Source: a virus
DNA: 64,000 bases
Virus record (IMG/VR): IMGVR_UViG_3300045988_058602
Location: 90,765 to 154,764 of that record
Strand: one strand, 5' to 3'
Of this stretch, positions 28,681 to 64,000 are shown in pieces. The number at the start of each line of letters is the position of its first letter. Position 1 is the first letter of the stretch. Position numbers and translations under genes: made by a program. The notes beneath the pieces were generated by a model that searched no databases, was not told the DNA's origin, and saw only the letters and a list, made by a program, of their open reading frames with translations.

Positions 28681-29181
28681 TTATAGTTCTATATTCTTTA
28701 TCTTAGGAGCTATATTAACCATTTCTCTATAATAATTACGTATTTTCTCAAATGCCTCATCAGGTATTATACTACAGTCAATTACTGATCTGTCATATAA
28801 CATATTACCAGGAAACCAGGCTATGTTTAGCATTCTCTGTTTAGAGTAAGTAATTCTGGTTTCTTTGGAGTCAATATAGACCTCATAGCAATCTTCGTTT
28901 ACCATACAAGAGTTGCCAAACTCTTTTGTTAGTTGGAAGTACATAAAAGAGTAATTATTGAAGTTAATTCTAAAACACTTCCCTACGTAGCTTTTAAACA
29001 GCTCTTCTCTTTTTTCCTCTTCCCTCCTTTTAGTATCTCTTCTTTCCTGTTCTTCTCTGTCTAGGTAATCACAATATTCCTGCAATGAACAGCCGGGATG
29101 CTTCTTAGCATATACTTTCATAGGATTTTCATTCCACATATCATACCATTTTAAGTTGCCCGTATACATCAAACCCTGCAA
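28681..29181 (-). CDS. hypothetical protein (166 aa)
   Basis: Intact ORF. Confidence 0.45.
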   Translation of the reverse strand: MQGLMYTGNLKWYDMWNENPMKVYAKKHPGCSLQEYCDYLDREEQERRDTKRREEEKREELFKSYVGKCFRINFNNYSFMYFQLTKEFGNSCMVNEDCYEVYIDSKETRITYSKQRMLNIAWFPGNMLYDRSVIDCSIIPDEAFEKIRNYYREMVNIAPKIKNIEL

Positions 29182-29563
29182 TAGGAATCCAGGTTACAAT
29201 ACTATTACTGTCTACTGGCTTTCCTCCCTTAATAGTGCAAACAGTAATATGAGGGTTGGCATTTGCACAAGGTAACTGTGGATCTCCAATAGTAACTCTG
29301 AAAGCTATAGCTTTATCAGAAAAGCCAATTCCGTCAATTGTTATACGATGCATTTCAAATGGGCCTCTTCTAATATATCCTCTTAAGGCTTCAAATATCT
29401 CTTCATCACCTTGACTACTATGAAGCAAGGTACAATGGTCTAGATACAGAGTACTCCCTCTTTGGAACACCAAATTAGATACAATAGGGTTATCAATGAT
29501 AACTCTCAAAAGTGCATTTCTATCTTTCTCAGAAAGAAATAATCCAAAATACTGATATTTCAT
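29141..29563 (-). CDS. 2H phosphoesterase superfamily protein (LigT / cyclic phosphodiesterase-like)
   Basis: Two H-x-T/S-x motifs: DHCTLLHS and NPHITVCT. Confidence 0.5.
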   Translation of the reverse strand: MKYQYFGLFLSEKDRNALLRVIIDNPIVSNLVFQRGSTLYLDHCTLLHSSQGDEEIFEALRGYIRRGPFEMHRITIDGIGFSDKAIAFRVTIGDPQLPCANANPHITVCTIKGGKPVDSNSIVTWIPIAGFDVYGQLKMV

Positions 29564-31084: not shown

Positions 31085-32893
31085 TTACTTCACTTCTTCA
31101 AACTCAGTTGTTTTGCTTTCAATCTGATTCTTTCCCAGTACACTCTTAACAGTGTCTGCGAAAGGAATCGAGCGAAGCAGGTCAAATGCAGGATTCAAAC
31201 TTTCAGCTGTTTTAGCCATGAAATTACCAGCGGTATTCTCGTTACCATAAACAGTAACCTGTCCAAGGTGAACGTGTTCAAACATCTGAGCAGATGCTTC
31301 TGCAATACCTGTCAACTGGTCAACTGTCTTGTACTGAACCACCATTTCAGGAGTCAAGCCAGATTCAATCATCTTCTGGACTGCCAGAGCAGGAGCCATT
31401 TCAATAGCCTGGACTTTATCAGCCTCAGCCATCAAAGATGCTCTCTTACCCTCAGCTTCAGCAAGCAGTTTCTTTCTTGTACCTTCAGCTTCGGCTTCTA
31501 GCTGCAACTTTGTAGCATTCGCTTTAGCTTCTGCTTCTTTCAGAATTTCAGCAGCCTTAGCTTCTGCTTCAAGTACAGCTTTCTGCTTAACAGCTTCTGC
31601 TTCAATCGTGATACGTTCCTTCTCCTTTTGAGCAGGAACAATCGTCTCAGCATGAAGCTTAGCTTCCATAGCCAATGCAGCTGCTTCGTTTACTTCCAGT
31701 TGCTTTTCTTGCTTAGTTTTCTCGATAGTCATTTGAGCTTCTACCTTAGAAGTTCCTGCTACCTTTTCAGCTTCAGCCTTAGCTTTCTCGGCCTCTCCCT
31801 TAGCTTTAGAGACTTCAATTGTGGCATTTTGTTCTGCCACTCCTGCAATCTTATCAGCTTCAGCTGCCTTTACACGCTTGTCTGACTCATACTTAGCAAC
31901 TGCAGCTTCCTGTTCGTTAATTGCCTTTTGCGTCTCAGCTTCCTGTTTTTGTTTAGCCTGAGCAATACGAGTTTGTTTCTCTGCTTCTGCTTCTGCTTTC
32001 TTAGAGTCAGCTTCTGCTTTAGCCTTAGCTACATTAGCCTCAGCCAGTGATTCAGACTCTGCTCTGTTAGAATCGGCTTCTGCTTGAGCTTTAGCTATAG
32101 CTGAAATTTTCTCAGCTTCTGCTTTAGCTTTCTCTGATTCCGCTGCAGTATTAGCTTTAGCAATATTGGCAGCTTGTTCAGCTTTCTGATTAGCAATACC
32201 TGATTGCTTATTCTTCTCAGCTTCTGCAAGTTTGATTTCCTTCTCCTGGTTAATCTCTGCCACACGAACCTCTTGCTCTTGTCTAGTCTGAGCAACAGTA
32301 GTTTCACGCTCTTTCTCAGCGTCTGCTACAGCAATTTCACGTTGCTTGTTGGTTTCTGCAATCTGAATATCTCCTTTCTTTTTCTCTTCTGCAATGTCAG
32401 CCTGTGCCTGAGCAAGAGCTTTAGTTGCAGCTTTCTGACCTAGATTCTTGATATAGTTTGCATCATCCGAAATATCGGCATTGTTAATGTTGATAATACT
32501 GAAACCTACCTTATTCAACTCGGTCTCAATATTCTCCTTAGCTTTGCCGATAAACTTGATTCTGTCAGCGTTAATTTCCTCAATCGTCATCGTAGCCATC
32601 AAGCTTCTCACTTCACCAATGAGAATATCCTTGATTTGGTCTGAGATTTCAGAAGTTTTAGCTGTTAAGAATCTACTTGCAGCATTTTGCATTAATGTTT
32701 GAGTAGTTCCGATACCAGTGGTCAATGTTACAGGAATAGTTACCTTAATCATTTGACTGGAAACACCAGTAACATTTACTTGAATTTGGATAGGTTTCAA
32801 GGACATTTTAGCCCAGTCTTGAATTACTGGCATTACGAATGTACCTCCACCATGAATGATTTTGGACGGCAGCATCAAATGGAATAATCCCAT
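31085..32893 (-). CDS. flotillin-like SPFH-domain protein with a long Ala/Glu/Lys coiled coil
   Basis: 602 aa with an N-terminal band-7-like core and about 300 aa of AEAEK-type repeats. Confidence 0.65.
   Translation of the reverse strand: MGLFHLMLPSKIIHGGGTFVMPVIQDWAKMSLKPIQIQVNVTGVSSQMIKVTIPVTLTTGIGTTQTLMQNAASRFLTAKTSEISDQIKDILIGEVRSLMATMTIEEINADRIKFIGKAKENIETELNKVGFSIININNADISDDANYIKNLGQKAATKALAQAQADIAEEKKKGDIQIAETNKQREIAVADAEKERETTVAQTRQEQEVRVAEINQEKEIKLAEAEKNKQSGIANQKAEQAANIAKANTAAESEKAKAEAEKISAIAKAQAEADSNRAESESLAEANVAKAKAEADSKKAEAEAEKQTRIAQAKQKQEAETQKAINEQEAAVAKYESDKRVKAAEADKIAGVAEQNATIEVSKAKGEAEKAKAEAEKVAGTSKVEAQMTIEKTKQEKQLEVNEAAALAMEAKLHAETIVPAQKEKERITIEAEAVKQKAVLEAEAKAAEILKEAEAKANATKLQLEAEAEGTRKKLLAEAEGKRASLMAEADKVQAIEMAPALAVQKMIESGLTPEMVVQYKTVDQLTGIAEASAQMFEHVHLGQVTVYGNENTAGNFMAKTAESLNPAFDLLRSIPFADTVKSVLGKNQIESKTTEFEEVK
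31440..32460 (-). repeat. intragenic degenerate tandem repeat (gcttctgcttcagc-like units) encoding the flotillin coiled coil
   Basis: Visible periodic GCTTCTGC/AGCTTT units on the plus strand. Confidence 0.5.
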
Positions 32894-34544: not shown

Positions 34545-35105
34545 TTAGTCTAACCATTCAAATTCTTCACCCTTGAAATGTCTTGCAAAACAAGCATCGA
34601 ACACTAGCTTTCCAAACTGGGTTGATACGTATTTGGCAATTTCTTCAGATTTGCACGCAAGCATCCCGACAAAGGAACCGGCATGGCCGACGCCACTGTC
34701 AGAATCGAAAGAGCCGAGACCCGCATCGCCGCCAATAAGCGCGCAGCCGCCTACCAACGCGAATTTCTCGCCCTGATAACGGAAGTGACCAATGACCTCT
34801 GCATCCTTCGGAACTGATTTCATTCTAAAGAAGCGAACCCAAGGATACCATACAGTTCCAGTCAGCAGATTGAACTTGTGCTTTTCGTTCAGCGCATCCA
34901 GAATTGTTTGCAACTTAGCTAGAGCCTTTACAGATTCAGTGTAATGGATTTCACTATTAAATAAGTACCCAAGATAGTCTCTAGCGTCCTCATAGGTCTT
35001 TATTCGTCCCATAATATTCTCTGGAACAATTTCAACATTACCTGTTTTGGCATTGTAGATAGGCTTGTAGCCATCTGGACATTCAATTTCAATAGTTCTT
35101 TTCAT
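34545..35105 (-). CDS. remote DGR target protein (186 aa) carrying a second variable repeat
   Basis: aa 116-148 GGCALIGGDAGLGSFDSDSGVGHAGSFVGML parallel the tail-fibre VR peptide GGGANYGGGAGLGSFDSSNGVGGAFSYVGF. Confidence 0.6.
   Translation of the reverse strand: MKRTIEIECPDGYKPIYNAKTGNVEIVPENIMGRIKTYEDARDYLGYLFNSEIHYTESVKALAKLQTILDALNEKHKFNLLTGTVWYPWVRFFRMKSVPKDAEVIGHFRYQGEKFALVGGCALIGGDAGLGSFDSDSGVGHAGSFVGMLACKSEEIAKYVSTQFGKLVFDACFARHFKGEEFEWLD
34659..34760 (-). repeat. DGR variable repeat 2 (VR2, remote, opposite strand)
   Basis: GC-rich island. Its reverse complement ggtaggcggctgcgcgcttattggcggcgatgcgggtctcggctctttcgattctgacagtggcgtcggccatgccggttcctttgtcggg aligns to the TR. Mismatches fall almost only where the TR has A. 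Confidence 0.75.
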
Positions 35106-35215: not shown

Positions 35216-35665
35216 TTATTTAAGTAATGGCGATAACTTTTTACCAAGAATCTTTACCGCCTTCTGCGCATCAGCCACAGTTTTGAAATAAACAACACCT
35301 GGATATTTTACATTCTGATGCATACCAACATATACTCCTTTTATATCGGTTTCTGTCTTCCCAGATAGAGAAGAACCTCTTCCAAGGAAATAGCCGTTGT
35401 TACTCTCCGTTTTATTCCAACCGTTGTTTAAGTAATTAGCTACTATTTGTAGACAAATTAGAGACTTAGTTTGCTCTGATGCCCCTAAAGGTAAAAATAG
35501 CACATCCCAATTCTTTTCAGATTCTAATATTTCTCCAAGAGAAGGGACTAGAACTTCTTCACTAAATGCAGTAAGAGCTAACTTTTTCAAGTCTTCATTA
35601 CCACTCTCATACCATTTACGTGCCTGTTCTAAAGTTACTTCAAGGCAAGCTTTTGTTTTATTCAT
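35216..35665 (-). CDS. hypothetical protein (149 aa)
   Basis: Intact ORF. Confidence 0.45.
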   Translation of the reverse strand: MNKTKACLEVTLEQARKWYESGNEDLKKLALTAFSEEVLVPSLGEILESEKNWDVLFLPLGASEQTKSLICLQIVANYLNNGWNKTESNNGYFLGRGSSLSGKTETDIKGVYVGMHQNVKYPGVVYFKTVADAQKAVKILGKKLSPLLK

Positions 35666-47187: not shown

Positions 47188-48102
47188 ATGGACAAAAGTA
47201 AAATTACAAAACAAAATGGGAACATAGCTTTCGAGGAGGAGGCTCATATTTATTATGATGTTACAGAGCCTGAACAGAAATTTATATCTGTGACGACTTT
47301 AATACATTCTTTCACCCAACCCTTTGACAAAGAGTTCTGGTCAGCCTATAAAGCATTAGAGAAACTTCTGTCTAAAGAAGATTGGGCTATTGAGAAAAAG
47401 TCATTACTGAATACTAAGAAATTTGACAAAGTTCTACTTGAGCTTCATAACATTACAGAAGACGAGTTTAATAAGGAACAACAAGCTATCTTAGATGCGT
47501 GGGATTTAGAGAATAGGAACTCTTGCGAAAGAGGAACTAAGATTCATGCAGATTTAGAAAACTCTTTTTACAAAAAGAAGAAGAACATAGACCTTAGTAA
47601 ATATCAAATAGGTGGTAAGTTTGAGTGTGTAAAAGACCATAATGAATTAGATTTAGAGAATGGGGTATATCCTGAGTATTTAATATCTAGAGTATCGGAA
47701 GATGGAAAACTTAGAATAGCTGGACAAATCGACCTACTAGTTAAAAGAGGTAATAAGATAATTATAGGAGACTGGAAAACTAATAAGAAGATAGAAACCA
47801 AGAGTTTCTTTAATTCTAAAACCAAATCATCAGTTAAGATGAAATATCCTCTAAATAATTTAGATGATGTTAATTATTGGCATTATGCACTTCAATTAAG
47901 TACTTACGCCTGGATGATACAAAAAAAGAATCCGGAGTTTGAGATTGAAGATTTAGTATTAGTTCACTTTGATCATAGTGATAATATGACAGTATATCAT
48001 CTACCTTACCTAAAAGATGAAGTAATTAGAATGCTATTGTTTTATAAAAAAGAATCTGTACTAGCTGAAAACAAAAGAAAACGTCAACGTATTGAATATT
48101 AA
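47188..48102 (+). CDS. PD-(D/E)XK nuclease of the RecB/Cas4/YqaJ exonuclease family
   Basis: GQIDLLVKRG...IIGDWKTNKK (D...DWK) and QLSTYAWM (QxxxY) motifs. Confidence 0.6.
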   Translation: MDKSKITKQNGNIAFEEEAHIYYDVTEPEQKFISVTTLIHSFTQPFDKEFWSAYKALEKLLSKEDWAIEKKSLLNTKKFDKVLLELHNITEDEFNKEQQAILDAWDLENRNSCERGTKIHADLENSFYKKKKNIDLSKYQIGGKFECVKDHNELDLENGVYPEYLISRVSEDGKLRIAGQIDLLVKRGNKIIIGDWKTNKKIETKSFFNSKTKSSVKMKYPLNNLDDVNYWHYALQLSTYAWMIQKKNPEFEIEDLVLVHFDHSDNMTVYHLPYLKDEVIRMLLFYKKESVLAENKRKRQRIEY

Positions 48103-61553: not shown

Positions 61554-63374
61554 ATGGCAGCTATCAAATCTATAAAGGTAGGAGAAATTACATACGACTT
61601 AAAGGCTACTTATGATGGTTCTGGCAACAATATTGCCGAGACCTATGCTAAATCTAGTGCTATTCCGACTAAAGTATCATAGTTAAGTAATGATAAAAAC
61701 TACCTAACAGAACATTAGGACATTAGTGGTTTAGCAACTAAAGAATAGATAGACGAAAAAGTAGACAAGGAATTAGGAAAAGGTCTTTCCGAAGCTAATT
61801 ATACTGAATTAGAAAAATAGAAGCTTTAGGGTGTAGAAGATGGTGCAAATAATTATGAACACCCAACTACAGCCGGATACAAACATATTCCCTCTGGAGG
61901 AGCAGCAGGATAGATTTTAACTTATTCTAATGATGGTACTGCTCAATGGGCAGATTCTAGCACTAAGTTAGATTAGCAATTCTAGGCACTTAATGAGGCT
62001 TGGGAAGAACTTCAGAAAGCTTAGCAAAATTTAGATAGTTAGGTAACAGCTATGACTAGTAACGCAGATCTTTACTCCTATGGAGTAGAATGGGATATAA
62101 CTGTATCTTCTCCGGTTCTCACCAGAATTGGAAACCCGTTACTGCATAAATCACTTCCTATTCAGTCTGCTTATAGGGGATGCGTAGCCAATGGAGCTAA
62201 TATAAACTATTTCTTACATCCAGATAATTGGGCTTATAAGGAAGACGGTACTACTCCCTCTGTGCTTGATGGTAGTGAAGGAACTGTTAGGGTTAACACT
62301 CCTAAGTTCTATGGTAAGTCTGGTTCCAATGGAAATAAAAGATGGGTAAGAGAATCAACTGTTAAGATAGACGACTCTTGGGTTGAAATACCGGAATTGT
62401 TAATTGATGCATATAGAAGCACAGTTGATACTACAGTATCTGCAACTCCAAAGGCTGTATCAGTAGTTAATACTACTACAGCATTTAGAGGAGGTGGAAA
62501 TAGAGCATAGTTCGACGAGTACTTGACTACTGAGCTGGAGACTAAAGATATTTTCAGAAGCGACTTAGGAAAACCAAGAACGAATATTTCCAGAGCCACA
62601 ATGAGAACTTATGCTACAAACGCAGGTTCTGAATTACTATGTTACGAATATTACAAGTGGATATTCTACTGGAATTATGTAATAGAATATGCTAACTTTA
62701 ACTCTTAGGCTACATATGAGGCAGAGCTTACTGCTGATGGCTATCATTAGGGAGGTCTTGGGCCCGGAGTTACGGATTGGAGTAATTCTGACACAAGTTG
62801 GTCTGGATATAACGGAACTTATCCTCTTACTCCATGCGGTCACTGTAACGATATTGGTAATTTCACAGGAGTTAAAGATTTAGTTATCCCAGGATGCACT
62901 GCAACAGATGGAACTAGTACAGTGGCTACTCATACTTTTAAAGTACCTCGTTGGAGAGGCTTTGATAATCCATTTGGAGACATTTGGACAAACCTAGATG
63001 GAGTAGTTATTCAAAGAACTGCAGCGAATGAAATAAGTAGTGTATATACTACCACAGATAAAGCGGAGTTTACTGACGTAATTGGCAACAAGACTATAGC
63101 CGGATACGAGGTAGCACAAGATGGATACATTAAAGAGTTTGATTTAGGAGAGACAGCGGAGATTATACCATCTTCTTGTACTGGAGCTTCAATTACTACT
63201 TATATGTGTGACTACCACTATTGTAACGCTAGCTCTACAGCGCTTCGCACGCTGCGGGTGGGCGGCGGCGCGAATTATGGCGGCGGGGCGGGTCTCGGCT
63301 CTTTCGATTCTAGCAATGGCGTCGGCGGTGCCTTTTCCTATGTCGGGTTCAGGACTCTAAATAGAGTATCTTAA
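61554..63374 (+). CDS. tail fibre protein with a C-terminal FGE/C-type-lectin-like variable domain (606 aa), TAG-recoded; primary DGR target
   Basis: One frame joins the fragments 62052, 62523 and 62922. The tail-fibre motif SGGAAG(Q)ILTYSNDGTAQW is present, with the Q encoded by TAG. The C-terminus ...RTLRVGGGANYGGGAGLGSFDSSNGVGGAFSYVGFR is encoded by VR1. Confidence 0.65.
63242..63349 (+). repeat. DGR variable repeat 1 (VR1)
   Basis: GC-rich island ctgcgggtgggcggcggcgcgaattatggcggcggggcgggtctcggctctttcgattctagcaatggcgtcggcggtgccttttcctatgtcgggtt aligns to the TR; nearly every mismatch is at a TR adenine. Confidence 0.8.
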
Positions 63375-63444: not shown

Positions 63445-63552
63445 CAAAAAAGAACTGCTAGTAGGCAGCAACGCGAATAATGGCAGCAATGCAGGTCTCA
63501 GCTATTTCAATTCTAACAATGACGTCAGCAATGCCAATTCCAATGTCGAGTT
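63445..63552 (+). repeat. DGR template repeat (TR)
   Basis: ctgctagtaggcagcaacgcgaataatggcagcaatgcaggtctcagctatttcaattctaacaatgacgtcagcaatgccaattccaatgtcgagtt is rich in AAT, AAC and AGC codons in the VR reading frame, and no TR codon can mutate to a stop by A-to-N change. Confidence 0.8.
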
Positions 63553-63749
63553 ATTATATATTTAGAAACAATTTTAATTTTTACCTTATTTAGTTTGCTA
63601 AGTAATATCCTTGCCTCTAGGCAAAAAATAACGTAGTGTTGAATGAAGGGTGTTAGTAGGTTATCTCGAACGCTTCCGATGAAATATATAAAAAATTGAA
63701 ACGTGTAGGACATTTGCACGAAAGGGTGTATGATTTATGGAACATCGAA

Positions 63750-64000
63750 ATGGCTGATGATAGAGCCAGAAAAAATAAATCTGTTCGATGTGGAATTAAG
63801 CAACATGATAAAAATAGATTAAAAGAAAATAAGGAATTATCCCACAAACTAAGGGACCTAATTTATCAGACGTCTGAATATAGTACTTTCATAATATATG
63901 AACCTAAGGGAAGATTAATCTTTAGACTTCCATACTATCCTGATAGAATAACTCATCATGCGATAATGAATATTATGGAGCCTATATGGACTAAAATATT
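63750..64000 (+). CDS. DGR reverse transcriptase, 5' partial (continues beyond the window)
   Basis: MADDRARKNKSVRCGIKQHDKNRL...GRLIFRLPYYPDRITHHAIMNIMEPIW has the RT domain-1 pattern P..DR..HHA....EP, and it starts about 200 bp downstream of the TR. Confidence 0.65.
   Translation, partial: MADDRARKNKSVRCGIKQHDKNRLKENKELSHKLRDLIYQTSEYSTFIIYEPKGRLIFRLPYYPDRITHHAIMNIMEPIWTKI

Follow-up and report, generated by a model that had tools for sequence, protein, structure and literature searches.

Can a single phage diversity-generating retroelement (DGR) rewrite a gene that lies 28.7 kb from its template, on the opposite strand and outside the recoded part of the genome? The question is raised by a stretch of 64,000 nucleotides from IMG/VR record IMGVR_UViG_3300045988_058602 (positions 90,765 to 154,764), which we refer to as the window. 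According to the original prediction, made from the sequence alone, a small minus-strand gene in the window contains a second variable repeat, derived from the template repeat (TR) of a DGR cassette at the far end. Below, VR1 is the variable repeat beside the cassette and VR2 is the remote copy. We asked what carries VR2, where the gene sits and whether the repeat is still rewritten.

The DGR cassette and its fibre-like target

A 98-nt direct repeat lies close to the reverse transcriptase (RT) gene. The two copies, both on the plus strand and 203 nt apart, are VR1 (63252–63349) and the TR (63455–63552). The TR is non-coding and A-rich; its in-frame reading is LLVGSNANNGSNAGLSYFNSNNDVSNANSNVELL. 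VR1 differs from the TR at 24 positions, 22 of which are TR adenines. Between contigs, VR1 also varies at adenine sites. The repeat forms the C-terminus of a tail-fibre-like protein of about 606 amino acids, encoded on the plus strand at 61554–63374. This long reading frame is interrupted by TAG, with at least 12 in-frame TAG codons read as sense. It is closed by the upstream repeat copy and ends ...LRVGGGANYGGGAGLGSFDSSNGVGGAFSYVGFRTLNRVS. The orthologous frame has 609 codons when TAG is taken as sense. Position, size and the literature point to a structural protein. By analogy with Zeta crAss-like phages (PMC12386605), the VR1 target would be a tail fibre with a C-lectin. By sequence, the VR1 domain had no matches in Pfam, in NCBIfam or in phmmer and hmmsearch comparisons with the PDB.

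The RT gene is represented by its 5′ part (63696–64000, plus strand) and runs off the window. Its start codon is uncertain, within 63651–63696. About 100 N-terminal amino acids are present and their translation contains FIIYEPKGRLIFRLPYYPDRITHHA. The window's own RT was read up to the window end, and the remainder was examined in an intact ortholog (L041) that is 98% identical over the window's part. This ortholog has about 400 amino acids and matches RVT_1 (E = 4.5e-20). It contains the motifs IGNYLSQ, of the GxxxSQ type, and YADD. The glutamine of the DGR-specific motif is encoded by a TAG codon.

A spacer separates the TR from the RT gene (63553–63695, plus strand). It contains a conserved hairpin and an A-run at 63609–63631, and similar elements occur 3′ of the TR in distant cassettes. 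These may have a priming-RNA role, by analogy with the spacer RNA of BPP-1. Folding of the TR-spacer region gave a stability not above that of shuffled sequences (z = +1.5). No gene for an accessory variability determinant (Avd) or an HRDC protein lies between VR1 and the TR, where there is no room for one. Similarly, none was found within about 1.5 kb 3′ of the orthologous RT, and the ORFs there had no Pfam match.

The remote repeat differs from the template only at adenines

VR2 is 92 nt long and occupies 34665–34756 on the minus strand. It aligns with TR positions 63459–63550. There are 23 mismatches in the 92 nt and all 23 are at TR adenines. Hence, 23 of 30 TR adenines are changed in VR2, compared with none of the 62 other bases (Fisher p = 7e-16). 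The original prediction had placed the repeat at 34659–34760, with nearly all mismatches at adenines. The locus and the adenine bias were correct, while the span was a few bases too wide and "nearly all" should read "all". In a repeat search, the longest inverted repeat of the window paired 34665–34755 with 63257–63347, in VR1. We also searched with a pattern in which each TR adenine could be any base. This matched exactly three sites in the window, namely the TR, VR1 and VR2, and nothing in 100 shuffles. At 64%, the G+C content of VR2 exceeds the 36% of the window. VR1 and VR2 differ from one another at 17 positions, of which 15 are TR-adenine sites.

As proposed, VR2 lies inside an ORF of 186 codons (34545–35105, minus strand), the translation of which contains GGCALIGGDAGLGSFDSDSGVGHAGSFVGML. 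The repeat encodes residues 117–148 and 38 residues follow it, in good agreement with a predicted C-terminal extension of about 40. The prediction of a remote repeat on the opposite strand, about 28.5 kb away, was similarly accurate; the distance to the TR is about 28.7 kb. A single reading frame is common to the TR, VR1 and VR2. In this frame, the TR adenines fall in ten AAY codons, in TAT, GAC and GAG, and in five AGC codons. No change of adenine to another base in the TR can produce a stop codon. Approximately 1e16 protein variants are possible (about 1.9e16 by enumeration).

The VR2 target and its predicted fold

The VR2 target is translated in the standard code and belongs to phage family PHROG 11581, of unknown function (E = 5.5e-14, residues 25–176). 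The protein had no match in Pfam or NCBIfam, and 88 family members had no match in Pfam. Likewise, the family profile matched nothing relevant among PDB sequences. An exhaustive search (E ≤ 1e-3) returned 207 family representatives at 50% identity, most of 180–210 amino acids. Using the family alignment (A2), hmmsearch recovered the 186-amino acid protein with E = 1.8e-60. The family pattern is YYP...G..Y.LVGG.A..G..AGLG.F.S..GVG.....VG.L.CKS.EIA.H.SKYFGKLIF.A.Y....W. In the 186-amino acid protein, the 38 residues that follow the VR are predicted to form two helices and a strand, and this region ranks with the best-conserved ones of the family.

A partial paralogue adjoins the VR2 gene (35216–35665, minus strand). 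It has the N-terminal helical module of the family and no VR domain. The relationship was detected by hhalign (probability 93% over 69 columns) and by hmmsearch (E = 2.9e-12). In INPHARED, there was no DNA match to the 33–37 kb region and no tblastn match to the 186-amino acid protein. Separately, an unannotated 25.5-kb fragment in INPHARED (MT836666.1) is a 95% match to another gene of the window.

We modelled the protein with AlphaFold (AF2) using 87 diverse family members. The model had a pLDDT of 93.4 and a pTM of 0.86. A model made with 55 close homologues only had a pLDDT of 47.6 and was discarded. Briefly, the predicted order is an N-terminal hairpin, helices, a sheet that includes the VR strands, and then two helices and a terminal strand. 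The VR elements are strands 113–124, 132–134 and 139–141 and helix 144–148. Compared with solved structures in the PDB, C-type lectins included, the model had no neighbour. In BFVD, its structural neighbours are uncharacterised and come from crAss-like phages and from other uncultured tailed phages. A C-type-lectin fold had been suggested for the VR2 target but was not found; the predicted fold, with a pLDDT of 93, is without a solved neighbour.

The features that define CLec-type variable proteins (such as Mtd, TvpA, TaqVP and AvpA) were also not found in the 186-amino acid protein. These are a CLec- or FGE-like fold, a VR at the extreme C-terminus, and either membership of FGE-sulfatase, DUF1566, Lectin_C or similar families or homology to solved variable proteins. 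When the families of the VR2 and VR1 targets were compared profile to profile, only 33–38 residues of the VR aligned. Hence, the two targets appear to be unrelated scaffolds that share just the cassette overwritten by the TR.

The non-lectin fold is a prediction of the model, and a circularly permuted lectin could escape such searches. The alternative is that the VR2 domain has a C-type lectin fold, highly diverged or with its order circularly permuted, and that the protein is an ordinary CLec variable protein. The same TR overwrites VR1 and VR2, so both fold around the same framework residues. Furthermore, new CLec variants are still being found, according to Roux et al. (PMC8144416). In the model, the helices come after the VR and not before it, and a permuted arrangement of this kind might evade structure searches. 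Set beside these points are the high-confidence model with no lectin neighbour and the alignment of the two target families across the VR only. We regard a disguised lectin as a possibility to be taken seriously, if somewhat doubtful, and favour a scaffold of another type.

Genomic setting and probable role of the VR2 gene

The window has 27 tRNA genes by ARAGORN and 28 tRNA matches in Rfam. With one exception, the tRNAs lie at 13.9–41.5 kb on the minus strand. A suppressor tRNA with anticodon CTA was identified by both ARAGORN and Rfam on the plus strand (44696–44768). The minus-strand block at 1–44 kb is open under the standard code, with an ORF coverage of 0.76. In the plus-strand block at 44.8–64 kb, ORF coverage increases from 0.40 to 0.89 when TAG is sense. 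The assignment of the VR2 gene to a standard-code region was therefore sound, since its block is open without TAG recoding. The RT and the VR1 target are recoded and therefore need the suppressor tRNA; the VR2 gene does not. Genes of the minus-strand block include those for NAMPT, an AAA ATPase and a protein with a tRNA-ligase CPD domain. An exonuclease gene is on the plus strand at 47188–48102.

Several features match those of Zeta crAss-like phages (PMC12386605). These are contigs of 185–192 kb, the tRNA load, amber recoding and a fibre-TR-RT cassette without Avd. On such genome features, the phage probably belongs to the Zeta crAss-like group, with TAG recoded. Epsilon crAss-like phages have genomes of 144–159 kb, 6 tRNAs and an RT of the GxxxSP type (PMC11054128). 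We rejected this identity given the tRNA count of at least 27, contigs of about 185–190 kb and the GxxxSQ RT found here.

Position, strand and genetic code are the grounds for describing the VR2 gene as early and non-structural. The description of its product as ligand-binding is by analogy. An alternative is that the protein is a component of the virion or of adsorption, such as an accessory receptor-binding or decoration protein, with VR2 still a true DGR target. The great majority of phage DGR targets are proteins that bind receptors (PMC10743442, PMC8144416). In addition, the framework is common to VR1 and VR2, and the two could form similar binding surfaces. However, the gene is in the minus-strand standard-code block, with tRNAs and the genes for NAMPT, the AAA ATPase and the tRNA-ligase domain. 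Roughly 10 kb separates the VR2 gene from the beginning of the TAG-recoded plus-strand block, in which the fibre gene lies. The protein is small, at 186 amino acids, and from its sequence has no signal peptide and no fibre-like N-terminus. There is also a precedent for a distal non-structural target in Quimbyvirus (PMC8008677). A virion role is thus unlikely in our view. The neighbourhood of the VR2 gene comprises tRNA genes and genes for replication or metabolism. Most probably, the 186-amino acid protein is a diversified binder with an early intracellular role in the following infection, such as host takeover or counter-defence.

VR2 varies at adenine sites among relatives

We searched for homologues of the VR2 target and recovered 832 at E ≤ 1e-3. 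The best 120 of these, with 86–94% identity, were used to calculate column entropy; most were the sole members of their 90%-identity clusters. Ten residues (121, 123, 124, 127, 134, 136, 137, 141, 143 and 145) had entropies of 3.1–3.6 bits and 11–15 residue types. In the 120 homologues, these ten hypervariable residues are those encoded by the ten AAY codons. Residue 132 was chiefly Y, S, F or C in 118 of the 120, as predicted for a change of TAT to TNT. Similarly, residues 120, 126, 131 and 140 were G, S or C, as predicted for a change of AGC to NGC. Other positions of the protein were mostly invariant or nearly so. The exceptions were a two-allele segment at residues 48–61 and three positions near the C-terminus.

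The same comparison was made with DNA. Among IMG/VR contigs, 39 had the VR2 gene and 80 had related RTs. In most contigs of the window's group, all 98 positions of the TR are the same. When each VR2 was aligned with its own TR (about 30 contigs), 15–29 adenines differed and usually no other site did. Across 32 alignable VR2 copies, the mean entropy was 1.27 bits at adenine sites versus 0.02 bits at non-adenine sites.

The rate of change was assessed against flanking DNA. Flank identity was taken from blastn alignments; an ungapped comparison of 6.5-kb flanks was misled by indels. Contig pairs with 5–6 kb flanks that were 98–99% identical differed in VR2 at 11–22 of 30 adenine sites and at 0–0.2 of 62 non-adenine sites. 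Divergence at adenine sites of VR2 was equally saturated at every level of flank divergence. One IMG/VR pair with 99.9% identical flanks (L028 and L029) had identical VR2 sequences. The window and two further contigs (L203 and L204) have essentially identical flanks and the same VR2, and the exact window sequence recurs in independent assemblies. Hence, turnover is not extremely fast. These comparisons suggest replacement of VR2 much faster than by ordinary substitution, though not in every generation.

Rare variants of the TR can be followed into its copies. The TRs of contigs 065173 and 061465 carry four synonymous C>T variants, all of which recur in both VR1 and VR2. In contig 059915, both VRs share with the TR a T>C variant that lies close to the TR 5′ end. 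The transferred markers span TR positions 8 to 93 of 98. Hence, copying extends over practically all of the 92-nt homology. Large contigs (185–192 kb) contain exactly the TR and VR1 pair plus one remote copy. A hidden second TR is therefore unlikely.

The same small-protein family is targeted in a distant phage group. Here, the RT is about 72% identical and the TR differs at many non-adenine positions. The remote VRs of this group are in one or two paralogues of the family, with mismatches at adenines only over 72–97 nt. Contig 106556 has two family paralogues with VRs in addition to VR1, making three targets. This distribution suggests that the PHROG 11581-type family is a recurrent remote DGR target. 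The family is targeted under a different TR; hence, the TR and remote targets have apparently co-evolved, which argues for maintained function.

VR2 as a live target

A further explanation is that VR2 is a decayed relic of a VR/TR cassette, no longer rewritten, and that its similarity to the TR is historical. VR2 lies on the opposite strand at a great distance from the cassette, and no IMH or hairpin is recognisable at its 3′ end. Moreover, VR2 of contig 058615 is out of step with the TR. It has non-adenine mismatches, a 3-nt deletion and none of the TR markers, suggesting that copies can escape or decay. However, a relic would gather substitutions at all bases, whereas the non-adenine sites of VR2 are essentially invariant and the adenine sites are saturated. 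The rare non-adenine variants of the TR are present in VR2 too. The reading frame is intact in 832 homologues, and the association is kept in the divergent phage group despite its different TR. We consider it very improbable that VR2 is a relic.

The absence of an IMH-like element at the 3′ end had been put forward as a sign of a non-functional copy. We searched for such an element and found none of the BPP-1 type (a GC-rich 14-mer) at the 3′ end of either VR1 or VR2. Hairpins were limited to a weak 5-bp stem at VR1, with none at VR2 and nothing common to both. The search did identify one difference from the TR that VR2 has in common with VR1. Both VRs end in GTCGGG compared with GTCGAG in the TR, and this applies to 32 of 32 VR2 copies and to the VR1 copies examined. 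Homology between VR and TR stops 1–4 nt after GTCGGG, which was the only VR-specific 3′ feature seen. Because VR1 is also without an IMH, its absence at VR2 is not evidence of decay.

Weakest is the proposal that similarity and variation result not from retrohoming but from DNA exchange, in which VR1 and VR2 or the genomes of co-infecting phages recombined or underwent gene conversion, or that the assemblies are chimeric. Short identical runs are common to the repeats, and the breaks of several contigs fall at VR2 or at the TR/VR1 pair. However, conversion would homogenise VR1 and VR2, which differ in every contig (at 15 adenine sites here), and the differences are polarised against TR adenines. 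VR2 is set in frame in coding sequence that is unique and conserved, across 39 contigs and hundreds of proteins, and independent assemblies agree on the exact window sequence. We consider this explanation extremely improbable.

Comparisons between genomes thus point to VR2 as a live target and not a relic. The central claim of the original prediction, that one DGR feeds a second and remote VR, is supported by four observations. These are adenine-specific variation in homologues, change in VR2 that outpaces its flanks, TR markers in VR2, and a single TR. They carry far more weight than the match in one genome. Taken as a whole, the best explanation is that the only DGR of the phage has a true second target in VR2, which it rewrote recently. 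We hold this with high confidence on the comparative data.

A proposed model for mutagenesis in trans

For the chemistry of retrohoming, the timing of expression, the place of the protein in the cell and its role in binding, we infer the following. The TR (63455–63552) would be transcribed together with the spacer. The RT, which is TAG-recoded and hence probably made late, would copy the TR to cDNA and misincorporate opposite adenines. This cDNA would replace the homologous 92–98 nt at VR1, in the tip of the fibre-like protein, 200 bp upstream. Acting in trans, it would also replace VR2, on the opposite strand at a distance of 28.7 kb. At VR2, the ten AAY codons and a few single-adenine codons would be randomised, and the framework of Gly, Ala, Leu, Phe, Ser and Val residues would stay fixed.

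A fuller proposal is offered tentatively and is, in our view, less likely than not. In this proposal, the 186-amino acid protein is an unrecognised DGR scaffold with a small, phage-only, non-CLec fold, its VR internal and set against conserved C-terminal helices. One or two remote targets of this type would be used across divergent Zeta crAss-like phages. The late, TAG-recoded RT would diversify a standard-code gene whose translation could precede the action of the suppressor tRNA. Each burst would thereby yield progeny pre-armed with varied intracellular binders, directed for instance at variable host targets in defence or takeover, as well as with varied fibre tips.

There are several implications. 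Catalogued DGR VR regions are almost all C-type lectin, and the 186-amino acid family is a candidate for a second natural scaffold for programmed variation. Such a scaffold bears on protein engineering and on the constraints that apply to DGR targets. In crAss-like gut phages, which are abundant, DGR diversification would extend from adsorption to a probable intracellular step of infection. PHROG 11581 is also flagged as a possible player in phage-host conflict. The genetic code divides the system into a recoded RT and fibre gene on one side and a standard-code target on the other, which allows a direct test of when mutagenesis occurs relative to when the target is used. This split, like the target family and its seemingly non-lectin scaffold, appears to be undescribed. 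Finally, the putative retrohoming over 28.7 kb in trans, with no BPP-1-type IMH, hairpin or Avd, offers a natural system in which to define the minimal target-recognition sequence.

Comparison with known DGR systems

The DGR of Bordetella phage BPP-1 (Mtd/TR/Avd/bRT) is the experimental paradigm. Like BPP-1, the phage described here has a TR-VR pair, adenine-specific mutagenesis at AAY codons and a one-way flow from TR to VR. In both, the RT adjoins the TR with a spacer between. In contrast, BPP-1 diversifies one target only, which adjoins its cassette and has its VR at the C-terminus, in a CLec fold. It also has a GC-rich IMH with a 3′ hairpin, and Avd. None of these three sets of features was found at VR2, and VR1 likewise has no such IMH or hairpin.

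Approximately 13% of prokaryotic DGRs have two targets (PMC10743442). In the survey of Roux et al., annotated VR regions were "systematically" lectin, and remote targets went undetected by design (PMC8144416). The tentaclin DGRs nd4 and nd12 (PMC10743442) resemble our system in that one TR serves two proteins of different topology, with one VR not at the C-terminus. However, both tentaclin targets are in the cassette, are C-lectin and are presumed to be receptor-binding. The Treponema denticola and Stenotrophomonas DGRs, as they are cited in PMC10743442, act in trans on VRs that lie apart from the RT, and one TR serves several paralogous targets. Our distant phage group also has two paralogous remote targets. 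Going by the same citation, those DGRs are cellular elements with CLec surface or lipoproteins as targets, whereas ours is in a lytic-type phage genome with an uncharacterised scaffold.

The closest cassettes are those of Zeta crAss-like phages (PMC12386605). Common features are a genome of 155–190 kb, a tRNA block, a CTA suppressor tRNA and amber recoding. The order is also the same, with a fibre gene that has a C-terminal VR, then the TR, then the RT. The RTs contain amber codons and the GxxxSQ motif, and most cassettes are without Avd. In contrast, the targets described there are tail fibres only, with extra TR-VR pairs in Lera and ct1yV3. Hence, a remote target in Zeta crAss-like phages appears to be undescribed.

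Quimbyvirus, of the candidate "Quimbyviridae", provides the nearest precedent for two targets (Benler et al. 2021, PMC8008677). It has two VRs, one in a structural gene near the RT and the other distal, on the opposite strand and in a presumably non-structural gene. The same arrangement was found here, with one TR, a VR beside the RT, and a second VR far off on the other strand. A structural plus a distal target for one DGR is already known from Quimbyvirus; hence, the architecture of our system is not new in kind. The likeness extends to a tRNA ligase near the distal Quimbyvirus target and to adenine-specific variation, shown there from near-identical genomes (PMC8008677). The differences concern the targets, the RT and the phage genome. 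Both Quimbyvirus targets are annotated as C-type lectin, whereas the remote target here is without a detectable lectin fold or family. The Quimbyvirus RT is split by frameshifts; here, in a crAss-like phage of about 185–190 kb, the RT and fibre target are TAG-recoded and the remote target is written in the standard code.

Base spectrum at variable adenines and a possible context effect

The base spectrum of two variable repeats was compared across 32 related contigs. These are the remote repeat VR2 (34665-34756, minus strand) and VR1 (63252-63349, plus strand), which lies at the C-terminus of the fibre-like gene. In the VR copies, any of the four bases occurs at the adenines of AAY codons. A single adenine that precedes a G behaves differently: G is present in approximately 85-100% of copies, and T or C almost never. 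Two of these G-biased positions are synonymous: GTA>GTG has 27 G and 5 A, and GCA>GCG has 31 G and 1 A. Two explanations are suggested by this bias: the misincorporation spectrum may vary with sequence context, or selection may act on the nucleotides themselves.

One contig, IMGVR_UViG_3300045988_058615 (loci L034 and L070), has a VR2 that is out of step with the template repeat (TR). Here, VR2 carries a 3-nt deletion and its mismatches include sites other than adenine. Moreover, C is retained at three of the four positions where the TR has C>T markers. Unlike VR2, VR1 of this contig is in step with the TR. This VR2 may represent a remote target that has escaped or is in decay.

Contig ends also coincide with the variable loci. 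Several IMG/VR contigs (L044, L048, L050, L057 and L060) end no more than a few hundred bases from the TR/VR1 pair, and the first base of contig 055634 (L039, L123) falls exactly at VR2. These ends fit a picture in which assembly broke at VR loci that are repeated or polymorphic, and are only a weak hint of within-sample heterogeneity.

The TR and the reverse transcriptase (RT) gene are separated by a spacer containing a hairpin and A-run (63609-63631, plus strand; CCTTGCCTCTAGGCAAAAAATAA). Similar elements lie 3' of the TR in the distant cassettes L092, L105, L107 and L111. The hairpin and A-run may be part of the RNA used for priming by the diversity-generating retroelement (DGR).

The VR2 protein family and additional targets

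Directly upstream of the VR2 gene is a 149-aa ORF (35216-35665, minus strand) with no VR domain. Its N-terminal helical module, LEQARKWYESGNEDLKKLALTAFSEE, is common to many members of the VR2 small-protein family, which looks modular. In contig IMGVR_UViG_3300045988_106556, two paralogues of this family bear VRs (L197:1077-1676 and L198:1209-1784). VR1 and both remote VRs match one TR, with mismatches in the remote copies confined to adenines over 72-97 nt. The phage group of this contig is more distant, and its TR is a different one; loci L183 and L199 are also concerned.

Genetic code and RNA genes

A suppressor tRNA(CTA) gene (44696-44768, plus strand) marks the switch from the minus-strand standard-code block to the TAG-recoded plus-strand block (44.8-64 kb). 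In the orthologous RT (L041:2501-3720), the DGR signature motif IGNYLSQ owes its glutamine to a TAG codon. Within the standard-code block, ARAGORN identifies a tRNA with anticodon TTA (41439-41509, minus strand; 'tRNA-Stop'). Judged by its anticodon, the predicted target would be the TAA stop codon. This tRNA immediately adjoins a RAGATH-14 RNA in the same block (41536-41742, minus strand; Rfam, 156.6 bits). Rfam also matches a tmRNA in the phage genome (20874-21438, minus strand), for which ARAGORN made no call. The match is to the full model and scores 69.3 bits, against a gathering score of 47.

Genes downstream of VR2

A 602-aa ORF (31085-32893, minus strand) contains three degenerate repeats (31952-32170, minus strand) with 66-nt spacing and 68-70% identity. 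The ORF has no match in PHROG. Downstream of the VR2 gene, at a distance of approximately 5.5 kb, is a gene encoding a tRNA-ligase CPD domain (~29141-29563, minus strand; L203:13543-13965). In Quimbyvirus, too, the distal DGR target has a tRNA ligase as its neighbour (PMC8008677).
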